A stretch of DNA of 64,000 nucleotides from a virus. The DNA lies in the IMG/VR virus record IMGVR_UViG_3300024981_000245. One strand, 5' to 3'. This document shows positions 1,542 to 56,409 of the stretch, in pieces. The notes below the pieces were generated by a model. That model saw only the letters and a program-made list of their open reading frames with translations. It had not been told where the DNA came from and made no database searches. Every line of letters begins with the position of its first letter. Within the stretch, counting starts at the first letter, position 1. Both the position numbers and the translations under genes were made by a program.

Positions 1542-1553
1542 TTAGTGGACTGA
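1542..1553. promoter_or_regulatory. Operator-like motif, variant TTAGTGGACTGA
   Basis: 11/12 match, directly upstream of the prim-pol SD. Confidence 0.7.
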
Positions 1554-1562
1554 TTGGATTTG

Positions 1563-1635
1563 CTGGCTAGGCAGGACTCGAACCTGCGACCTTGGAGTTA
1601 ACGGCCCCCCGCTCTGCCATCTGAGCTACTAGCCA
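1563..1635 (-). tRNA. tRNA-Asn(GTT) (duplicate at 61250-61322)
   Basis: Hand-folded cloverleaf: acceptor TGGCTAG/CTAGCCA, D stem GCTC/GAGC, anticodon GTT, T arm GCAGG-TTCGAGT-CCTGC, discriminator G; no encoded CCA; G27-A43 mismatch. Confidence 0.9.
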
Positions 1636-1669
1636 TTGTGCGCGTTGACCAGTCGCGCCCCTGGTCGGG

Positions 1670-2290
1670 TCAGAAGCCCTTGCCGGCGCCGACGGCCGCC
1701 TGCTGGAGGCGGAGCTGCGCGATCGCCACGGGATCAGCCCCGTCCACGACGGTGGCGATCTTGGCGTCGTCCAGGCCGAGAGCGATGAGCTGTGCGGCCT
1801 GTGCCTTCTGCGCATCGTTCAGCGCGGCGGGGAAGGCGTCGGGAGCCTTGGCCTCTGCGCCGCCGCCGAGCAGGGCGTCGACGGGCGAGCCCTTGACGAT
1901 CTCGTACTTGAAGAGCTTCGGCGCGAAGCCCTTCTGCGGCTTGGGTCCGTCACCGATGTACGTCGCCGTGAAGGTGTCGCCGACCGCCGGCGCGCCCTTG
2001 GCGAGACGGCTTGCCTCGCGCAGTGCCTTGATCTTCTCGCCCCACGCGTTGATGTAGATAGCGCGCACGCCATCGTCATCCTCGTCGAGGCGCTCGGTCG
2101 TCTGGATGTTGATGACGGCCTGCTTCTTCGGGTTGCCATCGTCCCAGAACTCGGGCTTGCCAGTGTCGAAGTTGGTCGCCTGACGGGTCTCCGCGCTCGT
2201 CACGATGCCCGTGTACGAGTCGCCGATCTTCTCGAACTTGGCCGTCTTGCCGCCGCCCGCGAGGAGGGCGTCGAGGGTGTCATTGCTCAT
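1670..2290 (-). CDS. ssb: Single-stranded DNA-binding protein (phage OB-fold type)
   Basis: KFEKIGDSYTG...FWDDGNPK pattern; next to exonuclease; start reassigned to ATG 2290. Confidence 0.7.
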   Translation of the reverse strand: MSNDTLDALLAGGGKTAKFEKIGDSYTGIVTSAETRQATNFDTGKPEFWDDGNPKKQAVINIQTTERLDEDDDGVRAIYINAWGEKIKALREASRLAKGAPAVGDTFTATYIGDGPKPQKGFAPKLFKYEIVKGSPVDALLGGGAEAKAPDAFPAALNDAQKAQAAQLIALGLDDAKIATVVDGADPVAIAQLRLQQAAVGAGKGF

Positions 2291-2331
2291 TTCTGATCTC
2301 CTTGATCTCTCGTTCTTCCTTGGTTCACCCT

Positions 2332-3054
2332 CTAGACGCCGAGCAGCGCTTCGAGGGAGTCTGTGTTCCCGGCCGTTTCGGACCAGTCGGGATACTTCTT
2401 GCAGTTGAAGCAATCGGGGTCACGCGGCAAGCCGCTGATCCAGTCGTCGCGCTCTTCGATTGTCGAGAAGGCGCGGATGTCGGCGACGATGCTCTCGGCG
2501 CGGTCAAGCGCTTCAAGCGCAATAAGGGGCTGGAAATCCTCTTCCCACCAGTAGCCCTGGCGAAGCGTCATGGCGTTGCGGGGCATGTACCAAACGGCAA
2601 CGCGATGCACCTCACGGCCAGCGCGGAGATGCCCCAATCCGTAGCTGTGCCCCTGGGTGCGGTACTGCGGGCTCGGGCCACGCTTAGCTTTGCGCAGGGT
2701 CGTGGCGCCGACGATCTTGAAATCGACCGATGTCCCGGTGGGGATGTGGAAGAGGTCTGCCGTTCCGGGAAGATCACGACCCGCAAGCTTGCCAACGGAA
2801 ACGCGAGTCTCCGTAAGCCAGTCGGGCAGGGGCTCGAAGACGCGCTCGAGCTGCGCGTGCATGGCGGTGCCAATGTACGGCAGCCACGCCGCCTCGGGCT
2901 GCTGTTCCCATCCAGCCAATTTCGCCGCGACACAATGCAGGCACGCAGATCCGATCTCTGAGGGACCTATGTGCTCCTGGAGGTTTCGCGGCTGCTGCAT
3001 CATGGCCTGCTCGACAATGTCGATGGCGAGATCGTAGACGGGATACTTGCTCAC
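2332..3054 (-). CDS. Cas4-like PD-(D/E)xK exonuclease
   Basis: IGPSEIGSACLHC, GTADL, VDFK, Q..SY, C-terminal CFNCKKY. Confidence 0.8.
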   Translation of the reverse strand: MSKYPVYDLAIDIVEQAMMQQPRNLQEHIGPSEIGSACLHCVAAKLAGWEQQPEAAWLPYIGTAMHAQLERVFEPLPDWLTETRVSVGKLAGRDLPGTADLFHIPTGTSVDFKIVGATTLRKAKRGPSPQYRTQGHSYGLGHLRAGREVHRVAVWYMPRNAMTLRQGYWWEEDFQPLIALEALDRAESIVADIRAFSTIEERDDWISGLPRDPDCFNCKKYPDWSETAGNTDSLEALLGV

Positions 3055-3287
3055 GGGTTCCGAGCCTCTCGGGCTCGTGCTCGGCGCAACTGCTCTGGTG
3101 TTGCATGGCCGCCCTTGATGCACCGCTCATCGAATGCGCGCTCTTCGTAGGCGGTGCGAACCATGTAGTCAATCTCTTCTGGAATGAAGCCGTGTGCAAG
3201 CATGCGAGCGCCAATGCCGAGGGCTCGCACCGCATCGTCAGGGCGTAGACCGAGCTGCTCGGCGACTTGTTCGAGTTTGACGGTCAT
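3051..3287 (-). CDS. Hypothetical protein
   Basis: Coupled ORF MTVKLEQ... Confidence 0.6.
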   Translation of the reverse strand: MTVKLEQVAEQLGLRPDDAVRALGIGARMLAHGFIPEEIDYMVRTAYEERAFDERCIKGGHATPEQLRRARAREARNP

Positions 3288-3463
3288 CCTGGCTGCTCTC
3301 CTGAGATGCAAAGCGGGTTGATGCAGTCCCACCACGAAAGCGTTGTGGTCGCCGGGACCATGAGGGCGCGGCACGCGGGGCAAAGAACGCCGTACTCGAG
3401 GGCCTCTTCGAGGAGGGTATCCCGGCCGATCGGCGCGATCGAGAGCGGAGCATTGATGGTCAT
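3284..3463 (-). CDS. Small zinc-finger protein (59 aa)
   Basis: Hand-translated MTINAPL...CPAC...CINPLC; coupled at both ends. Confidence 0.55.
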   Translation of the reverse strand: MTINAPLSIAPIGRDTLLEEALEYGVLCPACRALMVPATTTLSWWDCINPLCISGEQPG

Positions 3464-3744
3464 GGCTTCAGCTCCCCCTTCTCGTGATCCCAGTAGCAGC
3501 CGGGTTCGCGGTATTTGTTCAGCTCAGGGTCATCCGGCCATGTGCACAGCGGGCCCGGCTCGTGCTTGACAAGGTCCGGTCGGCAATCCTCGACCCAGTG
3601 CCGCTTGCCGTTGAACTCGTAGTCGTCATGCGTCAAGTCCTGCCCACAGAAGTGGCAGCGGTGATCGGCGTAGTTGCAGCGGTCACAGATCTCGTAGTAC
3701 GGCAGGCCGGAATCCGGCTCGATGTCGCCTGAACGGATGGGCAT
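3460..3744 (-). CDS. Cys/His-rich hypothetical protein
   Basis: CDRC, CHFC motifs. Confidence 0.6.
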   Translation of the reverse strand: MPIRSGDIEPDSGLPYYEICDRCNYADHRCHFCGQDLTHDDYEFNGKRHWVEDCRPDLVKHEPGPLCTWPDDPELNKYREPGCYWDHEKGELKP

Positions 3745-4082
3745 CAAGACACCTTCACGCTCGGGCTTGTCTCGACTTCATACTTCTTCAGCTCAATCGG
3801 CGAGAAGTGCTCCCGAACTGCGGGGACGTTGATGACCGGCTTGAAAAGATGAGGGTACTGCGTGACCGGAAAGCGCTCCTCGAGGCGCTTGGTGTCCAGG
3901 CGGCGCGACGTGGAGATGCTGACTGTCCAGTCGCCAGCCTCCGTCTTGCCCATTGGGGTGTTCTCGATGATCTGCGCGATGAGGGCTGCTTCCTCGGACT
4001 TGAGATCCTCGATGCGACCCCGGACGGTCGCGAGCCGTGCTGCGGCTTCTGCCCTGTTGAACGTTGTGGTGGCAGTGGTCAT
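3744..4082 (-). CDS. Hypothetical protein with coiled-coil N-terminus
   Basis: Strong SD, phage-like codon usage. Confidence 0.7.
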   Translation of the reverse strand: MTTATTTFNRAEAAARLATVRGRIEDLKSEEAALIAQIIENTPMGKTEAGDWTVSISTSRRLDTKRLEERFPVTQYPHLFKPVINVPAVREHFSPIELKKYEVETSPSVKVS

Positions 4083-4136
4083 TGCCTTCTCCTCTCCTTG
4101 GCTCCCTGGTTGGTGGTGGTTACCACCGTACCAGGA

Positions 4137-4148
4137 TTAGTGGACTAA
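4137..4148. promoter_or_regulatory. Operator TTAGTGGACTAA
   Basis: Exact; just upstream of a TACGGT -10 on the minus strand. Confidence 0.85.
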
Positions 4149-4324
4149 TTCTGTAGTTGGGGTGCGGTGCACGAAGCACCCCAAGATGTAGTGGTCGAAG
4201 ACGGGGACACCGCTGTCCCCTACGCCCTCCTTCTGCGCTTGTACCCCATCTGCGTGCTCCTCCTTACGATTAGTGGGCAGTTCTGACGCGTCTAACTCTA
4301 CGCATTCAGGCCACTTAGTGCAAG

Positions 4325-4336
4325 TTAGTCCACTAA
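4325..4336. promoter_or_regulatory. Operator TTAGTCCACTAA
   Basis: Exact, intergenic downstream of whiB. Confidence 0.85.
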
Positions 4337-4343
4337 TTTCTTC

Positions 4344-4631
4344 CTATGAATCATGCGGGCCCTGAGCCTGACGGCCCGCCACCCACACTCCCCCACCCCA
4401 CACTCCCCACTGCACGCGCCTCTTGCGGGCGTGCTCGGCGCACAGCAGAAGCAGCGGACACGGCTCACACAGCGCCGCAGCCGTCTCCGCATCAGGCAGC
4501 GGATAGTCGTAGTCGGCGTAGTACTTCGCCTTGTCGGCGCAGTACGGCTGCGGGAAGCGCTCCGGCTGCGAGTGAGCGAACTCCAGCGCCAGCTCGAAGT
4601 CTGTCTGTGCGGCCTTCTTACCCTTGCCCAT
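4344..4631 (-). CDS. whiB: WhiB-family transcription factor
   Basis: Four-Cys pattern C..CEPCPLLLLC and GVWGG motif. Confidence 0.9.
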   Translation of the reverse strand: MGKGKKAAQTDFELALEFAHSQPERFPQPYCADKAKYYADYDYPLPDAETAAALCEPCPLLLLCAEHARKRRVQWGVWGGGVWVAGRQAQGPHDS

Positions 4632-5138
4632 CTAGACCTTCTCCTTCTTCGGGTGAAACTGCCTGTGCAGCTCGAGCAACTCGGGGCTTCGGCGAATGGC
4701 GCTCCATGTGCGCTTCCACTCGAGCACGGCGTCTGCTGGCCGGTGAGCGTTGACGTCGAAGCGCTCGCGCAGATGGATGCCGCTACGCCCAATGTCCTCA
4801 GCGATGAAGGAGATCGGCATCCCCTCCTCAACCAGGGCGTAAATGCGCTCCAGCTCTTGCGGCGTGTACGGCTTCGCAACACGCGTGCGCATGTTCTCGA
4901 AAGCGCGGTCGACGGTCTTCTCGTTGACGCCAAGGTGCTCCGCAACTTGCTTGCGCGTCATCCCGCCGGCCACCAGCGAAAGAACATGGCGATCGCGAAT
5001 AGCCCGGCGGATGCTGGCAGCGTGGTTGCCGCCCGGAGGGAAGCGAATACCTCTTGCCTTCAGCTCAGCGGCGATATCCGCCTCGGCGAGACCGCCATCG
5101 TAGAGCGCGAGGATCAGTTCTCGGACTTGAAGATCCAC
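4632..5138 (-). CDS. Helix-turn-helix DNA-binding protein
   Basis: GMTRKQVAEHLGVNEKTV plus a second HTH-like segment. Confidence 0.7.
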   Translation of the reverse strand: MDLQVRELILALYDGGLAEADIAAELKARGIRFPPGGNHAASIRRAIRDRHVLSLVAGGMTRKQVAEHLGVNEKTVDRAFENMRTRVAKPYTPQELERIYALVEEGMPISFIAEDIGRSGIHLRERFDVNAHRPADAVLEWKRTWSAIRRSPELLELHRQFHPKKEKV

Positions 5139-5341
5139 GTTGCCTCCTCTTCTTCAACCGGGGTGATCGGCGTACACAGCGAAGCCACCCAGGAGGCACG
5201 CTGCCCGTCTGTCGTCTCGATGATGACGGTCGGCGTATCGGCATATGCGATCACACGGCCAGTCATGAAGACACCGCTCCCCTGTGCGAAGCGAGCTTCA
5301 ACCGGCTGGGCATCTTGTACCCACTTCCTGTAGTCGGTCAC
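5114..5341 (-). CDS. Hypothetical protein
   Basis: Coupled ORF. Confidence 0.55.
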   Translation of the reverse strand: MTDYRKWVQDAQPVEARFAQGSGVFMTGRVIAYADTPTVIIETTDGQRASWVASLCTPITPVEEEEATWIFKSEN

Positions 5342-5940
5342 TTCTCTTGCTCCCGCCCTTCCGAATAGTGATCGGGGCAGAATGAGCCCTCGTGTTTGCT
5401 GGACGGATCACCGCACCCTCGGCAGTACCCCTCCAGACGGTCTGACCTGAGCGGAACGTAAGTGCCCGCTATGTCAGTGGTCATCAACCGTTCCGCCGCA
5501 CGCTGACCGTAGGCGACGAGGCAAGACGGCGCGCCACTGTTCGCAGCGGCGCGCGTGCCGTCAGCCTTATGGAAGTAGAGCCGCCCATGAAGGAACAGCA
5601 CGCCCGTGGCCTTCTCCCAGACTTGCTTGACGAACCCTGCCGTCTCGGTCCGTGCGAAGATCAGTGCAATGCCGTCTCCGTGTGTAGCGAGCTTGTCGAG
5701 CCAGGTCCACGCTGCGAAGCTGTACGGCGGATTGAGCCAGACATGCCCATCCCACTCGGCCGCGAGGCCGTCCTCGGGAAGCTCTATGTGGCGGCTCGCT
5801 GTCGGCCATGGGCGCGGTGACGGTGCAGCGCACGGATCGAGATCGAAAGGTCCAAGCTTCTCGATTAGATCCGGTGGCGTCAGCCACGTCGTCGTCTCCG
5901 CACGAGCGGATTGGTGAGATCCCATCGCCCTTCCGCTCAT
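5338..5940 (-). CDS. Phage DNA N6-adenine methyltransferase (Dam-type)
   Basis: WLTP, FDLDPCA and catalytic WLNPPY motifs. Confidence 0.85.
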   Translation of the reverse strand: MSGRAMGSHQSARAETTTWLTPPDLIEKLGPFDLDPCAAPSPRPWPTASRHIELPEDGLAAEWDGHVWLNPPYSFAAWTWLDKLATHGDGIALIFARTETAGFVKQVWEKATGVLFLHGRLYFHKADGTRAAANSGAPSCLVAYGQRAAERLMTTDIAGTYVPLRSDRLEGYCRGCGDPSSKHEGSFCPDHYSEGREQEK

Positions 5941-6727: not shown

Positions 6728-7368
6728 GCTTCTCCCTCCCGTACCTGACGAGCACGCTCACGAAGCCAGCGGCGGACTGAGTACGTTGAGGTGTGCCCAC
6801 TCGACTCTGTCCCGAGGGCCTCACGGGCCTCGTGCGCCAGCGACTCGATCAGTGCCGCGTCATGGTTGCGCACCCACTCCCGGTAGAACGCCTGCGTGGC
6901 CTCGTCGCCGTCCACGTCCGCGAGATACACGGTCAACATGGCAAGACGCGCCTGACCGACATGGACGAGCTTCAACCGTTCGACTTCAGCAGCGAGGGCG
7001 TCGCGTTCCCGCTCGAGGTCAGCAACCTCAGACTTGCGCCCCCGCACGTGTTCCTCCGCGACCTCCAGCCGGGCCAGGAGAGCGAGCACGGTCGGCGGAT
7101 CGAACGTGGCGATGTGGGTGGCGTCGGCGGGGTCGAAGACATCGCCTCCGTGGTCGTCCCACGTCAGGCACTTGCTTGGGGTTGTCACGCTCGCCTGTGG
7201 AACCTGCGTCCCGTCTTTGTCCCAAATGACTCCCTCGACCGCATTCCACGGTCCCGGCGTTGCGGCTTCTGCGATTCCCCGCAGTACGGACAGATCAAGA
7301 TCAACCACGTCGCGCTCCCTCCATGCCTCGTGCATCTCATTGGTCGTAGGCGTGCAGTCAGAAGTCAT
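6724..7368 (-). CDS. Ead/Ea22-like protein
   Basis: AEAATPGPW...ATHIATFDPPTVLALL. Confidence 0.6.
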   Translation of the reverse strand: MTSDCTPTTNEMHEAWRERDVVDLDLSVLRGIAEAATPGPWNAVEGVIWDKDGTQVPQASVTTPSKCLTWDDHGGDVFDPADATHIATFDPPTVLALLARLEVAEEHVRGRKSEVADLERERDALAAEVERLKLVHVGQARLAMLTVYLADVDGDEATQAFYREWVRNHDAALIESLAHEAREALGTESSGHTSTYSVRRWLRERARQVREGEA

Positions 7369-8131
7369 CGTCAGCCTCCATGTAGGGGTTGAGTGGCGTC
7401 TCCAGGGCGCCGTCCAAGTAGCCGAATCGCTCGCTGGCGTCCCAGCCTTCTCGCCACGCCTGCGCCTTCACCTCACGGAGAGCGTCAGCGGGGGCGGCCG
7501 ACAGAGCCTTCATGACTGGCTCCTTGTGGTGGCTGTAGCCCGTCACTTGCCCGGCTATCTGCGCCTTCTCGATCACGGCGGCGAGATTGTCGCGTTCCCG
7601 CTCAGCCTCGGCAACCCGGGCATCAGCGATATCGGCTTCCTGCTCCATCTCGCGGCGATACTCCGACACCAGGTGAAGGGTGATGCCGACCGGATCGGTG
7701 ATTGGGGGTTGATCCCGGACCAGGACCGTGAGCGGTCCGAAGTAGTCGCGAGCGGTCCGCGCCCCATCGGTGTCCTCACCGATAGCTGCGACCACGCGGA
7801 AGAGACCTTCCTCCGCTGCGGCGAGGCGTTCCTGGAGTTCATCGCGCTCGGCGACGACGGAGTTGTACGAGTCGCGGCGCATCCACTCGACCCGCCCCGC
7901 CCGATGTGCGCCACCGTGCCCGTGCGGCAGCTCGCATTTCGGCGGCATCGGCGCGCACTCGCCCTCAGGGACGGGCAGCGTCATGCCCTCGTCCCAGCAT
8001 GACCCCTGCTCGTCGCGTTCCTTCACGAGCGCTTCGATAGCGTCAGCGAGCGCGTTGATCAGCGGCCCCTTGCTCACCCCGTGGCGCGGCCACACCCGAG
8101 CATCCGCGATCAGATCCGCGTAATTGTTCAT
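7358..8131 (-). CDS. Hypothetical coiled-coil protein
   Basis: Strong SD, 257 aa. Confidence 0.7.
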   Translation of the reverse strand: MNNYADLIADARVWPRHGVSKGPLINALADAIEALVKERDEQGSCWDEGMTLPVPEGECAPMPPKCELPHGHGGAHRAGRVEWMRRDSYNSVVAERDELQERLAAAEEGLFRVVAAIGEDTDGARTARDYFGPLTVLVRDQPPITDPVGITLHLVSEYRREMEQEADIADARVAEAERERDNLAAVIEKAQIAGQVTGYSHHKEPVMKALSAAPADALREVKAQAWREGWDASERFGYLDGALETPLNPYMEADDDF

Positions 8132-8161: not shown

Positions 8162-8173
8162 TTAGTCCACTAA
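8162..8173. promoter_or_regulatory. Operator TTAGTCCACTAA
   Basis: Exact, intergenic upstream of 8131. Confidence 0.85.
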
Positions 8174-15599: not shown

Positions 15600-15619
15600 C
15601 AGATTATTGGACTAAATCT

Positions 15620-42518: not shown

Positions 42519-42626
42519 AGACGAATCATGTCATGCGCACGTTGCGTGCGTGTGACGGGGCCCCTTGAGCGCTGGGCGATCGCGGTGACTTCCACGGGGT
42601 GCGCCAGCTAAACGCTGTAGTCGCGG

Positions 42627-43367: not shown

Positions 43368-43434
43368 GCCGCCAGGTTAGCGGGTCCATACTGTCGCTCG
43401 AACCTGACCACTGCTCCATCGATAGTTCAGCATC

Positions 43435-43485
43435 ACGACACAGCCCCCGGCTGGCCCTCACGGGCCGGTCGGGGGCTTTCGTCGT
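43435..43485. terminator. Long GC-rich hairpin
   Basis: AGCCCCC...GGCCC-TCAC-GGGCC...GGGGGCT-TTC. Confidence 0.6.
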
Positions 43486-43601
43486 GCGCGAACACCGGCC
43501 GCTGTGTCCGAGGGGCGTCGTAGGCTGGGAGGCTCCCAAAGACGGGAGCGGCCCGAACCGGTGTTGGAGCACCGGCCGGGCCTTGGCAACATCCAGGATG
43601 A

Positions 43602-44580: not shown

Positions 44581-44595
44581 TTAGTCCACTAAACT
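44581..44595 (+). promoter_or_regulatory. Exact operator fused to -10 TAAACT
   Basis: Upstream of the tail chaperone. Confidence 0.85.
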
Positions 44596-45345: not shown

Positions 45346-45779
45346 CGTCGTACCTTTGGTCGAATGCCGGGTCGGTTTTTGTCGAGGCCATCGAGGCAGC
45401 GATCCGGGCAGGGGTACGCCCAACAACGATGATCCTCGGCGAGGACAATCGCAAGCCCTACTCGCAGATGGATGTGCTCATTTCGCTCGCCTACGAGCGC
45501 TATAAGAACGAGACGTGCCCCGAGCACGGCGGACCCATCTGGCTATGTCGGAACGCTGATCCCACCCTCCAGGTCAAAGTCGTCGATACGCCGGCGTGCT
45601 ACGCGACCCAGGAGGTGCGGCTCTATGAGGAAAAGCACAAGGATGACGACGAGAAGGTCTCAGTTAAGGCTGAGTTCTACTCACGCATCGACCTGCCGTT
45701 GCATAAGTACCGTGACCGTTACTACGCCGATCTGATGGCCCCCGATGAGGAAGACGAGCCCGCGGACGCCGCAGATTAG
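45342..45779 (+). CDS. Tail assembly chaperone C-terminal extension (frameshift product)
   Basis: -1 frame relative to 44629. Confidence 0.75.
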   Translation: MTSYLWSNAGSVFVEAIEAAIRAGVRPTTMILGEDNRKPYSQMDVLISLAYERYKNETCPEHGGPIWLCRNADPTLQVKVVDTPACYATQEVRLYEEKHKDDDEKVSVKAEFYSRIDLPLHKYRDRYYADLMAPDEEDEPADAAD

Positions 45780-45790
45780 TCCACTAAACT
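45776..45790 (+). promoter_or_regulatory. Exact operator fused to -10 TAAACT (tape measure promoter)
   Basis: Operator 45776-45787 contains the chaperone stop codon. Confidence 0.85.
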
Positions 45791-45824: not shown

Positions 45825-48800
45825 ATGGCTGAACTCGATGCGGTAGCCCGCCTCAGGTTCATCGCCGACGGCGCCAAGCAAGTCGAAGACGCGATCGCGC
45901 GCGTGCGCGATGAGGGGATCGCTCTCGACAAGAGCTTCGACCGGCTCGAGCGCGACATGTCGCGCCTGTCGTCGACAGCGTCCAAGCTCTCCACGGATGT
46001 CGGCTCAGCGGGCTCCGCCGCCCGCCAGTCCTCGCAAGACGCCACTCGTGCGGCTACGGGGTGGGACGCGTACTCCAAGAGCCTCCTCGCCGCCCAGAAG
46101 GCGCAGCGCGACGCTTCGCAGCGCTCGGTGATGAGCCAGTTCGGTGCCAGCGCGATTCCCGCGAAGTCCGCCGAGAACATGACGATCGGCGAGCGGCGGG
46201 CCACGCTTGCCGCCTATGAAGCGCAGACCGTTTCGGTCATCGGCAAGCTTCGCCAGATGGAGGCGGCCGAGCAGGCGGTGAACAAGGCTGTCGCTGAGCG
46301 CTACGCCGCGGCGAAAAGCCAGTCTGCACGCAGTTCGATCTCCTCCGGTGTCAGCGGGTTCTTCGACAACGCGGGCAACGTGTCCAACATCACGGGTGCA
46401 CAGAAGTGGCTCGCCGATTACGACGCGCAGGTCAACGCCCTCGCCTCGAAGTCCTCCCCCAGGCTCCGCTATGCCCTCTACGACGTAGCGTCCACTGCTG
46501 GCGTGCTGTCGACGGCGATCACGTCCGCTGGCGCGGCAGTCGGAGTGCTCGCCGCTCAGCAGGAGTCGGCGTTCACCAATGTGCAGCGCACGCTCGACGG
46601 CGGAACGACCGAGTCCGTCGCACGCCTGCGCAAGGAACTCGTCGGGCTCACACGTGAGATCCCCCAGTCGTTCGCCAACATCGCAGAGATCGCGACCCTG
46701 GGTAACCAGCTCGGCATCCAGGCGCAGGACATCGGCCGGTTCACGGAGACGGTCGCGAAGTTCTCCGCCGTTACCGGCATCTCCGCTGAGGCCAGTGCCC
46801 AGGCATTCGGCTCGCTCGGTCAGATCCTCGGCGTCGGCGCCAGCCAGTACGAGAACCTCGGCTCCTCGATCGCGTATGTCGCGCGTACGAGCGTGGCCAC
46901 TGATGCCGAGATCCTCTCGCTCACCAGGGAGATCGGCCAGCAGGCAACGTCCGCAGGCTTCGCCGCCGATCAGGTTGTCGGCCTTGCGGGCGCGCTCGCG
47001 TCGCTGCGAGTGCCGCCTGAGCGTGCGCGCGGCGCCCTGACCACCTACTTCCAGACGCTCAACCAGCTCGTGGCAGAAGGCGGCGACAAGCTCGACCTGT
47101 TCGCCTCCCTCGTCGGCCGCACGTCACAACAGCTCACTGCCGATGTCGTCGGCGGTCGTGGCGCGCAGGTCTTCAAGGATTTTGCGGTATCACTCAGCCA
47201 GCTCAACACGGTCGACGCCACGCGTGCTCTCGATGAGCTGGGGCTTTCGCAGCTTCGCGTAGCTGACACCTTCACCCGCGTCGCCGCCAACCTCGAGGTC
47301 TACGATCAGGCCCTTGCGGGCGCCTCGCAGTCCTTCCGCGATGGTAAGGAACTCGGACGCCAGTATGCGATGGTCGTGGATGACATCGCGAGCCGCTGGC
47401 AGATCTTCATCAACGCCGTCCAGGAGGCGGGAGCCGCCGTCGGCGCTGTCCTCGGCCCAGCGATCGTCACTGTGCTCGATCTCCTGGCCAAGGTTGCCCA
47501 GGGCTTCGCGTCCTTCGTCAACACCCCACTCGGCCAGGGTCTTGTCACTCTGTCCGCAACCATCGGTGGCATCACTGCTGCCCTGGCGGGCATCGTCACG
47601 GTCAGCGCTCTCGCTGTCGGGTCTCTCGCAGCCGTTAGGACGGCCGCCGTCGAGCTGGGCATCGTCTCCGCCGGAACGACAACGGGACTGAGCGGCCTGG
47701 TCGGAGCGCTCCTCGGACTCCAGACCGCAACCGGCGGTGCAGCGATCGCGTTCAAGGTGCTCAAGGGTGCCATGATCGCCACGGGCATCGGCGCTGTGGT
47801 CGTTCTGCTCGGCACGCTCATCCAGATGGCTGGCGGTGTCGGCCCCGCGATCATCGATGTCGTCAACTTCCTCGAGCTGATGTACAACTCGGTCGGCAAG
47901 TTCGCGACCCCGTTCCGCAACCTCTTCGGCGTCATCGGTGGGCTCGCCGCCATGTTCGACCGCTTCTCGGGCAGCGCGCTCACCGCCGCACAGATCGTCG
48001 ATCTCGTCGGAAAGGTCATCTACAACTCCATTGTCCAGACCGGTCAGGATGTCGTCGGTGCCGCCCAGGGATTCGTCAACTGGGGTCGCGCCGTCATATC
48101 GGTGGTCACCGCCGTTGCCCGCCAGCTCCTCGGCCCCCTGTCCGGCATCGTGGGCATGTTCCAGCAGGCTGGGCAGCTCATCGGGGCAATCCTCAAGCCC
48201 ATCGGCGACGCGCTCAGCGTCTTTGGATCGGGTTTCACCGACGGGCTCGCAGCCTTCGACGGCGCGGTCGGATCCGGGTTCGACCAGATTCGTAACTTCG
48301 CCGCCAGCCTGCCGAGCACCGATGACGCTCTTTCCTCGCTCGGCGACACGGCGGCCCTGACTGCTGACAACCTCAATGGCGGAACGGGGAGCCTCGGCGA
48401 CGCTGCGGATGGCGCGGCGGCGAAGGTGCGTACGCTCACCGACTACGCGAACGACCTCAGCGGCGTCATGTCGCGCGCGTTCGATCTGCGCTTCGGCAAC
48501 CAGCAGGCCCTCGACACCATTACGGGCTCCTGGTCCAAGATCGCGTCGACAATCGCCGACGCTCGCGAGGAGATGGCTGGCTACGTCACCGACTTGCAGG
48601 GCATGGCTGCCGACCGCGCGATCAAGCAGTACTGGCTCTCGGTCGCCGAGAACTACGGCGATGCCCTGCGCGCGCAGCAACTGCGCGCGGACCTGGCAGA
48701 CCTGGACAAGAAGCAGGCCGACACCCAGAAGAAGCTTGCAACCGCGCAGGACAAGACCACGAAGACCCTCGACGGCAACAGTGACGCAGCGATCGCCAAC

Positions 48801-49601
48801 CGCGCAGAGATCCTCGGCCTGGTCACCAACTACCAGGACTACATCAAGACGCTCGCTGAGAACGGCATGGAGCAGGCGGACCTTCAGGCGACGGCTGCGC
48901 GACTGAAGCAGGAGTTCATCCAGCAGGCCGTCCAGATGGGCTACAACCGCACAGAAGTCGACCGCTACGCAGCGGCCTTCGACAGCCTCGGAACCATCAT
49001 CCGCAACGTTCCGCGCAACATCACCGTCACCGCAAACACCGACCCCGCGTACCAGGCCCTCAACGAGTTTCTCGCCAAGGCGAATGAGGCAACGGCCAGC
49101 GCGACGATCGGCGGCATCGGCGGCGGGTTCGACGCGGGCTACGCGGCCGGCAAGACGGTCGGCGAGGGCGTCAAGCGCGGTGTCGGCGACTACTTCAACG
49201 ACAACCCGCTTGCATTCCGCATCCTTACCCAGGGCCAGCCTGTCTACAACGTGCCCGGCACTAACCTGAAACTGTTCAAGTCGGGTGGATACACGGGTAA
49301 CCTGCCGGAGAACCAGGCTGCGGGCATCACGCACGGTCGTGAGTACGTCATGTCGGCGCCAGCCGTTCGCAACGCCGGTGGCCCGAACGCGATGAACACG
49401 ATCCACAACCTGCTGAAGTCGGGCAAGGGCTTCATGCCGAGCGGACTCGCCGCCGTCGGGGGGATGGTCGAGCTGTCCCCCGTCGACCGGGCGCTGCTCG
49501 CTGAGATCGCCGACCGTGTCGGGCTGACGATCTCGAACCAGACATTGCAGGCGACCGTGAATGGCGCCAACGGCGCTGCGGTCTCAAGGAGGGCCGGCTG
49601 A
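45825..49601 (+). CDS. Tape measure protein
   Basis: 1258 aa, Ala/Gly-rich; FKSGGYTG...AGITHGREYV near the C-terminus. Confidence 0.95.
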   Translation: MAELDAVARLRFIADGAKQVEDAIARVRDEGIALDKSFDRLERDMSRLSSTASKLSTDVGSAGSAARQSSQDATRAATGWDAYSKSLLAAQKAQRDASQRSVMSQFGASAIPAKSAENMTIGERRATLAAYEAQTVSVIGKLRQMEAAEQAVNKAVAERYAAAKSQSARSSISSGVSGFFDNAGNVSNITGAQKWLADYDAQVNALASKSSPRLRYALYDVASTAGVLSTAITSAGAAVGVLAAQQESAFTNVQRTLDGGTTESVARLRKELVGLTREIPQSFANIAEIATLGNQLGIQAQDIGRFTETVAKFSAVTGISAEASAQAFGSLGQILGVGASQYENLGSSIAYVARTSVATDAEILSLTREIGQQATSAGFAADQVVGLAGALASLRVPPERARGALTTYFQTLNQLVAEGGDKLDLFASLVGRTSQQLTADVVGGRGAQVFKDFAVSLSQLNTVDATRALDELGLSQLRVADTFTRVAANLEVYDQALAGASQSFRDGKELGRQYAMVVDDIASRWQIFINAVQEAGAAVGAVLGPAIVTVLDLLAKVAQGFASFVNTPLGQGLVTLSATIGGITAALAGIVTVSALAVGSLAAVRTAAVELGIVSAGTTTGLSGLVGALLGLQTATGGAAIAFKVLKGAMIATGIGAVVVLLGTLIQMAGGVGPAIIDVVNFLELMYNSVGKFATPFRNLFGVIGGLAAMFDRFSGSALTAAQIVDLVGKVIYNSIVQTGQDVVGAAQGFVNWGRAVISVVTAVARQLLGPLSGIVGMFQQAGQLIGAILKPIGDALSVFGSGFTDGLAAFDGAVGSGFDQIRNFAASLPSTDDALSSLGDTAALTADNLNGGTGSLGDAADGAAAKVRTLTDYANDLSGVMSRAFDLRFGNQQALDTITGSWSKIASTIADAREEMAGYVTDLQGMAADRAIKQYWLSVAENYGDALRAQQLRADLADLDKKQADTQKKLATAQDKTTKTLDGNSDAAIANRAEILGLVTNYQDYIKTLAENGMEQADLQATAARLKQEFIQQAVQMGYNRTEVDRYAAAFDSLGTIIRNVPRNITVTANTDPAYQALNEFLAKANEATASATIGGIGGGFDAGYAAGKTVGEGVKRGVGDYFNDNPLAFRILTQGQPVYNVPGTNLKLFKSGGYTGNLPENQAAGITHGREYVMSAPAVRNAGGPNAMNTIHNLLKSGKGFMPSGLAAVGGMVELSPVDRALLAEIADRVGLTISNQTLQATVNGANGAAVSRRAG

Positions 49602-50548: not shown

Positions 50549-52128
50549 GCGGCACGGGCGTCGATGTCACGATCGGTGGGCTTCCCGTCTGGAATACGGG
50601 CGCGTACTCGATCACCGAGGACTCCACCCCGACCGCACCAGATGATTCCAGCGGCGGCTACGGACAGATCCAGCTCCCCATCCGGGACAAGGCCGGTGTC
50701 AAGAGCCTCAGCGGCAAAGCGCTCACTCTGGAGGACGGGTCGCAGGGCAAGACGAGCGGCATCGTTCGCGGGCTCAGCGGTGACGGGCTTACCGCCCAGA
50801 TCACCGCGGACTCGCGACTCGGGCTGACCGCCGTCAAGCGCCAGGCTCAACCCTTCGTCGGACTCCTCGGCAATGCGATCCGCTACTACCTCGGACTGTG
50901 CGGGGTGACGAGTGGCATCGTTGTTGACTCTTCGCTCGAGCCCGTCGCGGTGAAGCTCCCCGGATGGAATGCGGTCGTCTACGACCAGCTCAAGAAGCTT
51001 GCGACCGCACGCAAGTTCGAGGTGTCACTGACCTCAAGCAACATCGTCTTCCGCCCCCTGCGCACCCGGACGGCTGAGAACTACCGCGATGCGAAGTCCT
51101 CGTGGGCGCTCGACGAGTCGAACCTAGCTCAGTCCGTAGAGGGCTACTTCTACGACTACGCCTCTGGAACGCAGCTCGCGTACCCGCCCGGCGGGTGGAG
51201 CGAGGACGTCACCGTCTACACCCTGAACGCGGGTGAGACGACCGTAATCAACCTCGACATCGATGCTTCACTTTCCTCGGTAGAGCAGCCGACGTGCGTT
51301 GCGTTCGTGGGCCGCAACGATTCTGGATCCAGCGTCTACGCGGTTGCTGGCAATGACGGGCTACCGATCCAGCCCGCGCAATGGCTTGCCGGTGGCGGAT
51401 CCGTCAAGGTGGAAATCGGAGACGACACCAAGAGCCTCAAGGTCACGATCACCGCCTCCTCCGAGACGCAGTACGCGCCTTACCGCATCGCCGTCTCGGC
51501 TGGTACCAGCGACTACTACTCTTCGCTGCGCATCCGCGGTACCGGCGTGTTCTTCAACAAGCAGAAGATGACCTTGCCCGCATGCCTGGACGCCGACCGG
51601 GCGCCGCAGGAGATCGGCGCCACCGTCGATAACGAGTTCTTCGAGACGCGGGACCAGCTTTATCACGCCCTCCTGCGATCTGCGGCTCGCTACTCCAGCG
51701 CGCGGCACACGATCAGCGTGCAGTCCAAGGGCATCAACCGCAGTGGCGAATCCGGCTCCTACGTCTACCCCACGATCGGCGAACTCAAGGCCCTGTACCC
51801 CGGCGCCACGATCGGCAGTATCCGCCTTCAGCCTGGCCTTGGCGGGACTATCGCACAGTGGAATGAGACGCTCCGCGACCTTGTCGACGGCGACTTCGTA
51901 AACCAGGCATTCGGCAACGTCGCCGGGGCGCGAGTGGTCAGCGACGACTGCGTGCTGCGCATCCGCTCATCGACCCTGGCGCCTGGATCCCTCACCTACA
52001 CCGCAGAACGTGACATCACGATCAAGGACGTCTTCCGCAGCGGTGAGACTATCGGGCAGTGGAATGCACGCTGGGCTGGTAAGACGATCCGAGACGTGAA
52101 GCTGACCCCACTTAGCGGACTAAACTAG
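50545..52128 (+). CDS. Minor tail protein (baseplate hub position)
   Basis: 527 aa, position. Confidence 0.75.
   Translation: MSGTGVDVTIGGLPVWNTGAYSITEDSTPTAPDDSSGGYGQIQLPIRDKAGVKSLSGKALTLEDGSQGKTSGIVRGLSGDGLTAQITADSRLGLTAVKRQAQPFVGLLGNAIRYYLGLCGVTSGIVVDSSLEPVAVKLPGWNAVVYDQLKKLATARKFEVSLTSSNIVFRPLRTRTAENYRDAKSSWALDESNLAQSVEGYFYDYASGTQLAYPPGGWSEDVTVYTLNAGETTVINLDIDASLSSVEQPTCVAFVGRNDSGSSVYAVAGNDGLPIQPAQWLAGGGSVKVEIGDDTKSLKVTITASSETQYAPYRIAVSAGTSDYYSSLRIRGTGVFFNKQKMTLPACLDADRAPQEIGATVDNEFFETRDQLYHALLRSAARYSSARHTISVQSKGINRSGESGSYVYPTIGELKALYPGATIGSIRLQPGLGGTIAQWNETLRDLVDGDFVNQAFGNVAGARVVSDDCVLRIRSSTLAPGSLTYTAERDITIKDVFRSGETIGQWNARWAGKTIRDVKLTPLSGLN
52112..52126 (+). promoter_or_regulatory. Operator TTAGCGGACTAA fused to -10 TAAACT inside a gene end; leaderless
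   Basis: 6 nt to ATG 52133. Confidence 0.8.
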
Positions 52129-52132
52129 GCTC

Positions 52133-52804
52133 ATGCCGAGGATCCCAGATGCCGCCCTCGGTGGGCCCGCAGATCAGCCGTGGAAGCGTTATGTCGACGG
52201 AGGGCTGGAGTCGCTCGAGCTTGCACTAAACCGGCTAGCGTCTGATTCAAGCGCATCGGGCAAGGGTCTGGCTGCCACCGCCGACGGGCTCGCGCGTCAG
52301 ATCTCTGTCCTTGCGCAGCAGACCGCCGATCTTGTTGGTCGAGCTTCCTACCAGAAATCATCTACGGATACGATCTCCTGGTCGAGCAGCGTGACAGGTT
52401 CGAGTCCTTTTGGCCCCGAGCTAACCGTTACGCTCAATGAGTCACGCGTTATTTCTGTGAGCTTCTTTACGAGCGCTGATGCCAGTGCCAGCACCGTTGG
52501 CGCTGGCACGATGAACCTATGGGGATCTACGGGCGTTGCCATCGACGGAGTCGCAGTGAGCGAAGATCTGGGGGCGCGGGGCTACATTCTCGTCTCCGCG
52601 GCTTCAAATGCTGGCGCTTCCGCCAACAACAGGTTCATCATTCCCATCACCGCGCGATTCCTAGTGGTCCTACCGGCAGGAGCGCACACCCTCCGGGGCC
52701 TCGTTTACGGACGCACATCAACGTACTCTGGCACCGGATCCGGATTCGGTTCGATTGATCTCAGAGAGCCAGCTCTGTTTGCAGACGTGCTCCAACTCGC
52801 ATAG
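52133..52804 (+). CDS. Minor tail protein
   Basis: Ser/Gly-rich beta domain. Confidence 0.65.
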   Translation: MPRIPDAALGGPADQPWKRYVDGGLESLELALNRLASDSSASGKGLAATADGLARQISVLAQQTADLVGRASYQKSSTDTISWSSSVTGSSPFGPELTVTLNESRVISVSFFTSADASASTVGAGTMNLWGSTGVAIDGVAVSEDLGARGYILVSAASNAGASANNRFIIPITARFLVVLPAGAHTLRGLVYGRTSTYSGTGSGFGSIDLREPALFADVLQLA

Positions 52805-52823: not shown

Positions 52824-52848
52824 TTAGTGGACTAATCGCGAATAAACT
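52824..52848 (+). promoter_or_regulatory. Exact operator plus -10 TAAACT; leaderless
   Basis: 6 nt to ATG 52855. Confidence 0.85.
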
Positions 52849-52854
52849 GGAGGC

Positions 52855-53436
52855 ATGCCTACCCCGCTGTATGGACTCCCGCTTTACGGAGACGACGATA
52901 CGGCGGAGCTGGATGTACTCCTCAACGGCCAGTCGACGGCAATCGAGACGGCGCTCTCTACCCAGTTCGTTGACCGAAATGGCATGTCGGTACCCAACTT
53001 CGCCTCCCTCCCCACAGGCGGGAATTGGCAGGGTCGGCTTCTCACGACCCGCGACATGGGCTTCGTGTATGTCTGGGCTGGATCCTGGCTTCAGGTTGGT
53101 GGGGGTTCTTGGCTTACGGCCTCAACCAGCATCTCGGCCGGGTCTGGGGCGATCAATTCTGGGAACGCCGCGCACAAATACAAGTACGTCGAGGGCGCGG
53201 TCGTTGACTCTGTCACGGTGACCATCTCCAATGCTGGAACAGGTGGCGGCGGCCTATCTGTGGAAATGCCATTCACCGTAGCGGGAACCTGGATGGGGGT
53301 GGGCCGCAGCGAGATTGATGGGTCTCAGTTGCAAGTTCGCGTTCAGGGATCGTCCGCAACAGTTTTCAAATACAACAACAACACCCCCATCGCAAATGGA
53401 ACGCTCTTCTTCACTGTAACGTGCGGACTGAGCTGA
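52855..53436 (+). CDS. Minor tail / fibre protein
   Basis: MPTPLYGLP N-terminus; fibre-like GRL...D.G.VYVW. Confidence 0.65.
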   Translation: MPTPLYGLPLYGDDDTAELDVLLNGQSTAIETALSTQFVDRNGMSVPNFASLPTGGNWQGRLLTTRDMGFVYVWAGSWLQVGGGSWLTASTSISAGSGAINSGNAAHKYKYVEGAVVDSVTVTISNAGTGGGGLSVEMPFTVAGTWMGVGRSEIDGSQLQVRVQGSSATVFKYNNNTPIANGTLFFTVTCGLS

Positions 53437-54176: not shown

Positions 54177-54631
54177 TTCGCCGCCTCTGGGCGGCATCCA
54201 TCTGGCATCCAGACGCAATCCCGCTCGATGAATGGAAGTACCGCAACCTCAAGCGCGTACTGCTGCCGATCGTCGACGTGTTCCTGATCTGGTGTGGCAT
54301 CTGGGCGGGTATCCAGGGGATCCCTGCAATCGACGTCTTCTTCGTTGACTGGGTGAGCGACTCCTTCTCGTACCTCTTCGCCGCCGCCGCCGTCCTTGCT
54401 CTCATCGGGGTGGCATTCCCCCGCCTGTGGTGGGTCGAAGCTGGCGCAAATATCGTCCTCAGCGGACTTCTCGCTTCATACCTCGGAGCGCTCATGCTGC
54501 TCACTCTTCCCTCCATCGGCTCTCGCGGCTTTGTATCTGGGCTCGCCGGCGTCGCTCTGGGTGTCGTCATCTGGCGCCTTTCCCTGCTCGGCGGCGAATG
54601 GGCGGAGCGGCGCAGTGAAGGAGATGAGTAA
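54173..54631 (+). CDS. Multi-TM membrane protein (holin-like)
   Basis: About 4 TM helices, follows the lysin. Confidence 0.65.
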   Translation: MIRRLWAASIWHPDAIPLDEWKYRNLKRVLLPIVDVFLIWCGIWAGIQGIPAIDVFFVDWVSDSFSYLFAAAAVLALIGVAFPRLWWVEAGANIVLSGLLASYLGALMLLTLPSIGSRGFVSGLAGVALGVVIWRLSLLGGEWAERRSEGDE

Positions 54632-54963
54632 TGGAGCCGTGGGGCTCAATCATCGTCGGCGGACTCGGCCTCACCGGAGTCATTACATCATCCGCCCTGC
54701 TCTTCTTGCGTGGCCGCGGTGATTCCAAGCAGAAGCTCAACGAGTACATCGACCAGCGCGTCGAGGCTCAGTTGAAGGGCGCGCTTACCGAGCTGGATGG
54801 CGCCAAGACCAAGCTCGGTGCTGCAGCTCGCGTACTGCTTGCGATCTCCCGCCAGACGCCCGCGGGATTCTACCCCCGCCTCAGCCCTGAAGACGTCGCA
54901 ATCCTCGAAGACACGCTCCCGCCGCAGTGGGTGGGAGAGCCGGGCTCTGTGAGCCCCGATTGA
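54631..54963 (+). CDS. Single-TM membrane protein of the lysis region
   Basis: N-terminal TM plus coiled coil. Confidence 0.6.
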   Translation: MEPWGSIIVGGLGLTGVITSSALLFLRGRGDSKQKLNEYIDQRVEAQLKGALTELDGAKTKLGAAARVLLAISRQTPAGFYPRLSPEDVAILEDTLPPQWVGEPGSVSPD

Positions 54964-55007
54964 GTGCCCCCGGGCCTCAACATCACGACCACTACTAAGG
55001 AGATCCG

Positions 55008-56285
55008 ATGCCGAACTCTCGCTCACCCCTTCGCGATGATCCCGCGTTCATCGAGGACTGTCTGAACCTTCGCAAATCCGTCGTGATGGAGAAGTGGGGA
55101 GTCTCCTCGGGCCTTGTCGTCAACGTGAAGCGAGACAATGGCGGCAAGCTCGATATGGCACGGACGAAGGGGGCGCTGCCGGAAGCCGGCGAGTCCGATC
55201 AGATCTCCGATGGGCCGGATGGACGTCGATTCGACTTTGTCCGAAACCGGCCTGTCACACTTGAGGATGCGCGCCGCCTCATCCGCTCGAGCGGCGACGA
55301 CCCCGACCTTTACCACATCTCGATCCGCACGATCGCCTATGGCGGCGACAAATCATCCAACAAGATTTCAGCCTGGCCTAAGCAGGGTCTTGCGCTAGCC
55401 GAGGCTGCGCCTCTCTCTCACCTCTATGCCGAAGCCGCGAAGATGCGGGAGCAGAGCCGCAAGACGGCCGCCCCGGTCGACCCCAGCCGCGCGACAATTG
55501 TCGCGGTCGCTGATCTCCAACTTGGCAAGGTTGGGCGCCGTGGCGGCACGCCGGAGACACTCGCTCGCATTGAGAGCAAGCTCGAGAAGCTGGCAATCGA
55601 CTTCGCTGAGCGCGCGCCCTCGCACATCCTGATCGCGGACCTTGGAGATGGGATCGAGGGTTTCGAGTCGGGCGGCAATCCCATGTTCACCAACGACCTG
55701 AGCTTGCCCGACCAGATCGATGCCTACTCGACCGAGATCTTCAAGTTTGTCCGCCTCGCGAGCGCCTTCGCACCTTCGATCTCCGTCGCCGTCGTCCCCT
55801 CCAACCACTCGGCGTGGAGGCGCGCCAAGCAGACGCTCGGTCGACCCAGCGACGACTTCGGCATCCTCGTGCACAAGCAGGTCAAAAAAGTCGCCGACGC
55901 AGCTGGGATCAACGCATCGTGGCACTCTCCGATCGACTTCGACGAATCCGTGCGCGTTGATGTGCTCGGTGTCCCGATTGGGCTCGTGCATGGCAATCAG
56001 TTCGGTCCCGGACAGGCGGTCTCTTGGTGGGAGAAGCAGGCTTTTGGTTCACAGGCCATCACTCACTGCGATGTTCTCCTGCATGGGCACTACCACTGCT
56101 TCTCGGCGAATACCGCAGGCACAAACCCAGCGACAGGACGCGAACGCATCGGGATCGGCGCGCCGACGCTGGATAACGGATCGGACTGGTTCCGCCAGGT
56201 TTCCGGACGCGACTCTGAGCCGGGACTTCTCATCTTCGATGTCACACCAGATGGCTTCGATCTCGGATCGCTGAAGATCCTGTGA
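55008..56285 (+). CDS. Calcineurin-like metallophosphoesterase
   Basis: ADLQLG, DLGDGIEG, SNH, VHG, HGHYH. Confidence 0.85.
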   Translation: MPNSRSPLRDDPAFIEDCLNLRKSVVMEKWGVSSGLVVNVKRDNGGKLDMARTKGALPEAGESDQISDGPDGRRFDFVRNRPVTLEDARRLIRSSGDDPDLYHISIRTIAYGGDKSSNKISAWPKQGLALAEAAPLSHLYAEAAKMREQSRKTAAPVDPSRATIVAVADLQLGKVGRRGGTPETLARIESKLEKLAIDFAERAPSHILIADLGDGIEGFESGGNPMFTNDLSLPDQIDAYSTEIFKFVRLASAFAPSISVAVVPSNHSAWRRAKQTLGRPSDDFGILVHKQVKKVADAAGINASWHSPIDFDESVRVDVLGVPIGLVHGNQFGPGQAVSWWEKQAFGSQAITHCDVLLHGHYHCFSANTAGTNPATGRERIGIGAPTLDNGSDWFRQVSGRDSEPGLLIFDVTPDGFDLGSLKIL

Positions 56286-56398
56286 AACTCACACTCGGCA
56301 TCGCCATCGGCGCCCTGATCGGTGCGTACCTGGCGCGCAGTCAGTATGTCGCGCTCGCATTCCGCCTACTGACCGAGCCCGTAGCCCCACGCATTTAG
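56282..56398 (+). CDS. 38-aa hydrophobic peptide
   Basis: Hand-translated MKLTLGIAIGALIGAYLA...; coupled. Confidence 0.45.
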   Translation: MKLTLGIAIGALIGAYLARSQYVALAFRLLTEPVAPRI

Positions 56399-56409
56399 CG
56401 GACTAAAAT
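56395..56409 (+). promoter_or_regulatory. Operator TTAGCGGACTAA fused to -10 TAAAAT (holin promoter)
   Basis: Seen directly. Confidence 0.8.

Follow-up and report, generated by a model that had tools for sequence, protein, structure and literature searches.

A 12-bp palindrome repeated over the promoters of a temperate Microbacteriaceae phage is probably the operator of a phage-encoded repressor

The DNA described here is the IMG/VR virus record IMGVR_UViG_3300024981_000245, a stretch of 64,000 nt (the window), in which a 12-bp palindrome, here named the operator word, recurs in and around the promoters of a phage. Positions 1-4313 of the window repeat exactly at 59688-64000, so that the window represents a circular 59,687-bp genome read 1.07 times; features past 59,687 are duplicates of earlier ones, such as the motif copies at 61229 and 63824, which repeat those at 1542 and 4137 because the window wraps, and the tRNA at 61249. 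The G+C content of the genome is 63%. Genes were called by a codon-bias heuristic of our own. Leftward genes occupy an arm that starts near 18.3 kb, passes the origin of numbering and ends at 56.9 kb; rightward genes span 19.35 kb to 56.6 kb, and a few opposite-strand inserts interrupt these arms. The phage is a temperate siphophage with structural genes (major capsid protein, tape measure), replication genes (primase-polymerase, helicase), recombination genes (tyrosine integrase, an HTH_17 excisionase, a second recombinase) and others, including a Wzy-like and SGNH cassette, a WhiB-like protein and a tRNA-Asn. Its temperate lifestyle is shown by int, xis, a tRNA fragment in the attachment site and an integrated copy, since the identical phage was found integrated in a metagenome contig, with host genes beyond gene 33054-33563.

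33957-34013 (-): tRNA fragment in attP, marking this site

No nucleotide relative of the phage was found among 50,697 deposited phage records, and its capsid protein shows about 30% identity to capsids from phages of Microbacterium and Arthrobacter. Homologues of the DndB-like protein, described below, number in the hundreds, in prophages of Microbacteriaceae and in ~60-kb contigs, with the gene always directly ahead of the terminase genes. They sit mostly in Microbacterium and other Microbacteriaceae, which indicates the host group, and none was found in 50,697 deposited phage genomes. The phage belongs to a previously unsampled lineage of ~60-kb temperate phages of Microbacteriaceae (Microbacterium-type hosts).

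The operator word has the form TTAGT-SS-ACTAA, a palindrome of 12 bp with 5-bp arms and a 2-bp centre. An earlier note on this DNA had listed 17 exact copies, six more sites keeping TTAG-N4-CTAA and five near matches, and had held that such repetition is not chance. All 17 copies (TTAGTGGACTAA/TTAGTCCACTAA) are present where they had been placed, and so are the six, five of which also fit TTAGYGGRCTAA, the site at 17727 (TTAGCGCGCTAA) keeping only the looser form. The near matches were found as well, with one mismatch at 1542, 15604 and 24361 and two at 12203 and 16157; another copy with two mismatches lies at 34709. In the window, TTAGYGGRCTAA occurs 23 times, corresponding to 22 unique copies, and none is expected in shuffled sequence, confirming that the repetition is not due to chance. 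Counting near variants, the genome holds 26 unique sites. Expectations after shuffling were 0.00 for exact copies, 0.04 for TTAG-N4-CTAA and 0.65 for matches with at most two mismatches, versus 48 strand-wise matches of this last kind.

Intergenic DNA makes up 10.3% of the genome, and 24 of the 26 sites are mostly contained in it. The bases flanking the word are nearly always A or T, suggesting a footprint closer to 14 bp. Relative to local transcription, the central GG/CC is found in the two orientations 15 versus 10 times, and this lack of orientation bias is what a symmetric dimer predicts. No occurrence of the exact 12-mers was found in the literature text searched. Other readings of the word itself were rejected: as an RNA hairpin it would have a stem of only 4 bp, a methylase target would be shorter than 12 bp, and the register of the sites with -10 hexamers speaks against packaging sites.

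We read the sites along the local direction of transcription and scored them against TANNNT hexamers, taken as -10 elements, and start codons. The three placements proposed earlier (fused to the hexamer, upstream of it, or over the start) proved to be real. At seven sites (group A) the last TAA of the word begins the -10, which reads TAAACT at 33033, 36268, 44581, 45776 and 52112 and TAAAAT at 26453 and 56395; about 0.2 ACT continuations after the word would be expected by chance from base composition. The word ends 4-8 nt upstream of the -10 at 18288, 25896, 8162, 4137, 28901, 52824, 30496 and 37626 (group B), and it lies at or just after the -10, over the start, at 15555, 19247/19295, 24361 and 35192 (group C). 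The sites at 23199 and 1542 (group D) have no recognisable -10. With leaderless ATGs as reference, motif centres lie anywhere between about -35 and about +14 of the inferred start. Paired sites flank or overlie the main early promoters and are spaced, centre to centre, by 23 bp in the leftward early promoter and by 48-49 bp in the rightward early and clamp-gene promoters. The sites and their promoters are listed here, operators being given without strand.

1542-1553: operator variant TCAGTCCACTAA, one mismatch, between tRNA-Asn and the primase-polymerase gene; no clear -10
1562-1635 (-): tRNA-Asn(GTT), within the leftward replication operon, immediately upstream of the operator variant
4137-4148: operator following a hairpin, with TACGGT 6 nt downstream; promoter of the leadered gene 3744-4082 (-)
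4325-4336: operator directly past the WhiB-like gene, followed by degenerate half-sites
8162-8173: operator 5 nt upstream of TACGAT; heads gene 7358-8131 (-)
15555-15566: operator 4 nt past the -10 TAGAAT (TAGACA-17-TAGAAT), over the inferred start of the clamp-like gene 14871-15506 (-)
15604-15615: operator variant, one mismatch, 4 nt upstream of the -35 TAGACA of the clamp-like gene promoter, 49 bp from 15555
16157-16168: degenerate site, two mismatches, fused to the TAAAAT-N6-ATG of a 73-aa open reading frame (ORF), 16178-16399
17727-17738: variant TTAGCGCGCTAA, upstream of gene 17367-17699 (-)
18288-18322: double operator (18288-18299 and 18311-18322) of the leftward early promoter, operator-N5-TAGAAT-N6-ATG of the leaderless gene 18010-18270 (-)
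19218-19306 (+): rightward early promoter TCCACA-18-TACAAT, ahead of gene 19350-19967; -10 fused to operator 19247-19258, second operator at 19295-19306
23199-23210: operator immediately next to the ribosome-binding site of gene 23224-23442, a member of the rightward early operon; no -10
24361-24372: weakened operator TCAGTCCACTAA, one mismatch, directly past the -10 TACACT of the DndB-like gene
25896-25907: operator-N5-TAGAAT-N6-ATG of the small-terminase-like gene 25925-26431
26453-26464: operator lying in the spacer of TTGGCA-18-TAAAAT and fused to its -10; promoter of the leaderless gene 26475-27191, which encodes an endonuclease VII domain
28901-28912: operator-N7-TAAAAT-N7-ATG of the portal-position gene
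30496-30507: operator-N8-TACCAT-N7-ATG of gene 30529-31455
33033-33044: operator fused to TAAACT, the -10 of gene 33054-33563, which is followed by N6-ATG
35192-35203: operator between the divergent int and xis; covers the start inferred for xis (past TATAGT) and lies ~43 nt ahead of the ATG of the leaderless int
36268-36279: operator fused to TAAACT-N6-ATG of gene 36289-36729
37626-37637: operator-N8-TACCAT-N7-ATG of gene 37659-37856
44581-44592: operator fused to TAAACT; leadered gene 44629-45345
45776-45787: operator fused to TAAACT; leadered tape-measure gene 45825-49601
52112-52123: operator TTAGCGGACTAA fused to TAAACT-N6-ATG of gene 52133-52804
52824-52835: operator-N7-TAAACT-N6-ATG of gene 52855-53436
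56395-56406: operator TTAGCGGACTAA fused to TAAAAT, upstream of gene 56434-56640 for a small membrane protein

An automatic scan returned 12 leaderless-looking genes, with a start codon 6-7 nt after TANNNT and no Shine-Dalgarno sequence, where ~2.4 would be expected by chance. The word lies within 45 nt of ten of these 12 promoters; the portal gene becomes the thirteenth of the type, and the eleventh with the motif, if its ATG is read at 28933 as in the public gene call. In numbers, the earlier statement that the word stands in nearly every promoter corresponds to these ten of 12 promoters of the leaderless type and to 20 of the ~33 gaps of at least 35 bp between genes, which carry a site. The two motif-free leaderless promoters belong to genes on the strand opposite to their lytic neighbours, which look like accessory genes.

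18669-19076 (-): lipoprotein gene with motif-free leaderless TAGCAT-N7-ATG, between the two early promoters; likely expressed in the lysogen
42627-43367 (-): SGNH/GDSL hydrolase gene with motif-free leaderless TAACCT-N6-ATG, in an opposite-strand surface-glycan cassette

We then compared host genomes and related phages, named below by our own handles. No copy of TTAGTSSACTAA was present in 298 of 301 Microbacterium genomes, and two genomes had a single copy. The remaining one, G211 (4.6-Mb chromosome), has at least nine copies within 50 kb, in a related prophage that is syntenic, with proteins 45-60% identical, ~21 sites and the same architecture. In Frigoribacterium, prophage G002 carries the 11-bp TTAGYSACTAA at ~16 sites, and all four exact copies of this variant in the genome are inside the prophage. 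The absence of the word from host genomes outside prophages points to a regulator encoded by the phage and not by the host. Motif classes in the relatives were assigned from pieces of 13-21 kb, save for three full prophages. The Microbacterium prophage G001 and the near-identical L105 have the 13-bp TTAAGC-S-GCTTAA, L108 carries TTAAGCGCTTAA and L009 carries TTAGCTAGCTAA; L104 has the same motif as the phage described here, and L102 keeps its core. In L005-L008, L106 and G211 (proteins 45-68% identical) the word is kept at equivalent promoters, and the arrangement at 23199 is found at the same spot in L006, L007 and L008. Different variants within one genus, together with the same word despite ~50% protein identity, fit a co-evolving pair of phage repressor and operator.

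Searches of IMG/VR by TerL and by the motif doublet gave no further relatives, a metagenome scan with the primase-polymerase gave two loci, and a family-level genome search returned just the two known prophages. De novo motif finding in distant DndB-bearing prophages (L011-L057) gave output dominated by coding-bias palindromes. A separate observation concerns L107 (13779, 15400) and L009 (13749-21206), which share near-identical leaderless late promoters, CCTAGACTCCGCG(C)CATG with the -10 TAGACT; most late promoters of this sub-clade have no upstream operator, and the network seems reduced there.

Based on these results, we consider it probable that the word is the operator of a phage-encoded dimeric repressor maintaining lysogeny. 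Since the site centre varies so widely around the start, a sigma element or a classical activator does not fit, and for a steric repressor it is enough to overlap the footprint of the polymerase. The contrast between motif-bearing lytic promoters and motif-free accessory ones is what lysogenic silencing predicts. The preference for a repressor over an activator expressed in the earlier note is thus upheld by the variable position, the motif-free accessory promoters, the absence from hosts, the co-evolving variants and the lack of orientation bias. From this arrangement we infer a route of binding, repression and induction, as follows. One sequence-specific phage dimer would bind ~25 copies in or beside the core elements of many small transcription units. 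Among these are the two early promoters, xis, the blocks of replication genes and a dozen separate, often leaderless promoters for packaging, head, tail and lysis genes. A repressor bound there in the lysogen would cover the -10, the spacer or the start site, and at the few promoterless sites it would block elongation; the conserved sites without a -10 (23199 and 1542) may act as roadblocks. The lytic programme would in this way be silenced promoter by promoter, with the motif-free accessory promoters remaining on, and induction would probably proceed via a LexA-controlled small protein and not by self-cleavage of the repressor.

Several observations weigh against the proposal of a lysogeny repressor. 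Some intergenic gaps have no motif, and neither do the late promoters of L107. Among the ~50 proteins scanned with Pfam and PHROGs, no repressor of the CI/Cro type or of the L5 gp71 type was found (no direct comparison with gp71 was made), and no clear covariation with motif class was seen for the candidate DNA-binding proteins. The recognisable small DNA-binding proteins are all inside early operons, making a role in the lytic cycle possible. Promoters, start sites and leaderless status are assigned by TANNNT spacing only, and among the RNA runs searched for this phage none containing it was found.

Which protein could bind the word? An XRE-type helix-turn-helix (HTH) repressor, with or without an S24 peptidase domain, as in lambdoid CI/Cro immunity regions, is absent between the divergent early promoters; this slot contains the lipoprotein gene and ~350 bp without a credible ORF, and it holds unrelated genes in each relative. 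DNA-binding candidates common to the phages with the same word are the DndB-like protein, a 168-aa protein with three HTH repeats next to WhiB (3xHTH, 4632-5138), a 127-aa HTH protein encoded after the primase-polymerase (HTH-127) and a 51-aa AbrB-like protein (23439-23594).

24392-25795 (+): DndB/DGQHR (ParB-fold) protein, 467 aa, separately transcribed; Pfam DndB 1.2e-22

The DndB-like protein is our leading candidate for the operator-binding master repressor, and this assignment is a tentative one. Its gene is conserved in every relative, forms its own transcript unit and is divergent from a gene with a LexA box. In the examined relatives except L009 and L107, its promoter has a half-degenerate version of the own-phage operator beside the -10, which is what negative autoregulation by a repressor expressed in the lysogen looks like. 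In Salmonella, DndB is an autoregulated repressor of dndBCDE that recognises palindromes lying over its own promoter (PMC4507180).

Other results count against this candidate. The confident AlphaFold model (predicted local distance difference test, pLDDT, 93.6) has a ParB/Srx-fold N-terminal domain, but its matches are limited to ParB-like N-terminal domains and are weak, the best being SspE (Z 6.7) and the ParB-like PadC (Z 6.2). The model shows no HTH, and the protein has no HTH family match and no structural match beyond residues ~28-214, the helical C-terminal part not being searched separately. The gene invariably sits next to the terminase genes, on their upstream side. Positions that could set specificity did not emerge: covariation with motif class in nine and then thirteen sequences gave three scattered positions (123, 378, 398), and the tree of the protein indicates plain vertical descent, so that DndB is neither supported nor excluded by these analyses.

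Next to the DndB-like gene lies the sole LexA box of the genome, which covers the start of the divergent gene 23968-24150. Boxes with one mismatch occur at the same place in L005, L007, G211 and G001/L105.

24168-24183: exact actinobacterial LexA box TCGAAC-N4-GTTCGA, 3 nt past TTGGCA-17-TAGATT
23968-24150 (-): 60-aa gene, conserved in relatives; no family match

The 60-aa protein is a candidate SOS-induced antirepressor: a LexA box over a conserved small gene suggests an antirepressor under SOS control, and hence a repressor that would be non-cleavable. It is conceivable, though we would not count on it, that the DndB-like protein, and not an HTH protein of the CI type, acts as a KorB-like silencer which binds the ~25 palindromes, autoregulates by way of the weakened operator at its own start site and is switched off by this LexA-controlled antirepressor, encoded divergently beside it.

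We also considered that the word may serve the timing of the lytic cycle, with an early phage protein (3xHTH, HTH-127 or AbrB-like) acting as a Cro-like or shutoff factor that would turn off early promoters, or delay or coordinate late ones, in the course of infection. The location of all small DNA-binding proteins in early operons and the presence of sites on early and late promoters alike are consistent with this, although one factor repressing both kinds of promoter during lytic growth would block virion production, and the motif-free accessory genes are better explained by lysogenic silencing. The recognition-helix residues of HTH-127 (58323-58706) are common to this phage, G211 and L104, which share the motif, and not to G001 and G002; however, L102 has the same core motif with different helices. 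The 3xHTH protein does not covary with motif class, and G002 has the network with no 3xHTH orthologue beside WhiB; the AbrB-like protein does not covary either, its DNA-contact region being identical between motif classes. These three proteins were set aside as binders, and a timing role of the word appears unlikely. A 78-aa HTH gene in the immunity gap of G211 (not conserved) and the 73-aa ORF at 16178 (not conserved in any relative) were also rejected. That the word is a positive element, through which a phage activator, a sigma-like or a WhiB-associated factor recruits the host RNA polymerase, would accord with the lack of a convincing -35 at most promoters, with the frequent position of the motif in the spacer or on the -35 side, and with the presence in the phage of the WhiB-like protein and of one whose HTHs resemble sigma region 4. 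We judge this improbable, as the distance from motif to -10 or ATG varies (9, 10, 17, 19, 20 and 21 nt) and some copies lie downstream of the -10, fusion to the -10 or a start-site position being incompatible with known activator geometries; moreover, G211 has the same motif and no detectable WhiB orthologue, and motif-free leaderless promoters exist.

Binding by a host transcription factor, which would tie the phage promoters to a host regulon, is very unlikely, given the near absence of the word from Microbacterium outside prophages, the confinement of the Frigoribacterium variant to its prophage, and the different variants and lengths in G211 and G001, phages of the same genus. Its appeal comes from the exact LexA box, which shows that the phage uses a host regulator elsewhere, and from the TTAG...CTAA arms, which resemble several bacterial operators. 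Finally, promoter location could be incidental and the sites could be loading or centromere-like sites of the ParB-fold DndB-like protein, in genome organisation, packaging or defence evasion. ParB-family proteins do bind dispersed palindromes (PMC11790492), and the constant position of the DndB-like gene directly upstream of the terminase genes would suit such a role. Against this, the register with -10s and start codons is precise and conserved across diverged relatives, a phage that integrates needs no partition system, and more than 20 dispersed packaging sites would be harmful; we regard this explanation as the most improbable of all. The operator of a lysogeny repressor remains the reading we prefer.

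Other features were observed near the sites. At 4344-5138 (-) a WhiB-like protein (Pfam 6.7e-8) follows the 168-aa 3xHTH protein, which has a weak KORA Pfam match (E 0.002, below cutoff). L102 and G001 keep both genes together; G211 has the HTH gene by itself, preceded by a 1-mismatch operator. The gene at 5338-5925 (-) has an NPPY-type motif, seen by eye, that is typical of N6-adenine DNA methyltransferases. Between two operator-bearing promoters, the ~550 bp at 15620-16150 contain no credible ORF, have a G+C content below the rest of the genome and a TATATATAT run near 15903; the region had no match in Rfam, and it could be a replication origin or a non-coding RNA region. The 73-aa ORF 16178-16399 (+), located in the leftward arm, has the promoter TTGCTT-17-TAAAAT-N6-ATG, overlapped by the 2-mismatch operator. 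From the leftward early promoter to the lipoprotein gene, the ~350 bp without a credible ORF (18323-18668) include direct copies of GGGGCTACAACCCAC, at 18506 and 18558, as well as a hairpin with a T run that resembles a terminator (18460-18485). L005, L009 and L010 conserve a word, ATAGGT(A/C)ACGGT, located downstream of the operator pair. The opposite-strand module at 41051-44522 (Wzy-like gene, small membrane protein, SGNH cassette and second tyrosine recombinase) has no operator and no counterpart in the three full relatives; it looks acquired and accessory.

Taken together, these data set out the regulatory grammar used by ~60-kb temperate Microbacteriaceae phages of a lineage not sampled before. 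The late genes form a dozen small, mostly leaderless units with their own operators and not one operon, so that one protein could silence the virus promoter by promoter. The natural operator variants of 11, 12 and 13 bp provide a series for studying how immunity specificity evolves, and in genomes the word identifies prophages belonging to the lineage and predicts the genes that they leave on in lysogens. Should the ParB-fold DndB-like protein be the binder, it would represent a new class of phage repressor, and the DndB family would gain a role in silencing an entire viral genome.

Dispersing a single repressor word across the genome of a phage is a known control logic, as in P1 C1, cluster A mycobacteriophages and phiC31. 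In cluster A, immunity relies on an L5 gp71-type repressor, an operator and about 25-30 stoperators. The repressor motif co-evolves among related phages, and stoperators are asymmetric 13-mers in one orientation relative to transcription that stop elongation (PMC6550527). Like cluster A, the phage described here has about two dozen copies over both arms, in short intergenic gaps, with variants co-evolving in relatives. Unlike cluster A, its word is a 12-bp palindrome without preferred orientation, mostly merged with -10s or start sites. The scan of ~50 proteins with Pfam and PHROGs, which did not include a direct comparison with gp71, recognised nothing like gp71. The distinction from stoperators drawn in the earlier note, that sites are embedded in promoters, thus applies to most of them; those at 23199 and 1542 could be roadblocks and are nearer to stoperators than had been assumed.

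In P1, the repressor C1 controls many separate operons by scattered operators that overlap promoters; these operators are asymmetric 17-mers, P1 is a plasmid prophage of enterobacteria, and its late genes need an activator. The two phages share the logic of scattered promoter-overlapping operators and have no sequence or protein relationship, and unlike in P1 the late genes here carry individual operators. The Streptomyces phage phiC31 has a large atypical repressor, c, which binds a palindromic repeat of 17 bp at many sites of the early region, confined to early functions. Both phages are temperate and actinobacterial, and in ours late virion genes carry operators too.

In the IncP plasmid RK2, the KorB operator OB is TTTAGCGGCTAAA and the KorA operator OA is GTTTAGCTAAAC, with TTAG...CTAA arms (PMC11790492). 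As with KorA/KorB, short palindromes are found here at variable positions in many promoters of one replicon, and KorB belongs to the ParB family, the candidate DndB-like protein having a ParB-like fold. The variant at the DndB promoter of G001, TTTAGCGGCTAAT, matches 12 of the 13 bases of OB. In contrast to RK2, this is a phage and not a plasmid, and the DndB-like model has no KorB-type HTH; the likeness of the operators to OB and OA is a lead and not evidence, and may be a coincidence. Salmonella DndB is of the same Pfam family as the candidate, with a site TACG-N10-CGTA at a single promoter versus ~25 sites here; dndCDE (and dndA/iscS) were not found in the phage or at the locus of any relative. 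In conclusion, what is particular to this system, besides its having no recognisable repressor, is a short palindrome merged with -10s, its presence at about a dozen virion-gene promoters, and a graded series of variants of 11-13 bp among related phages.

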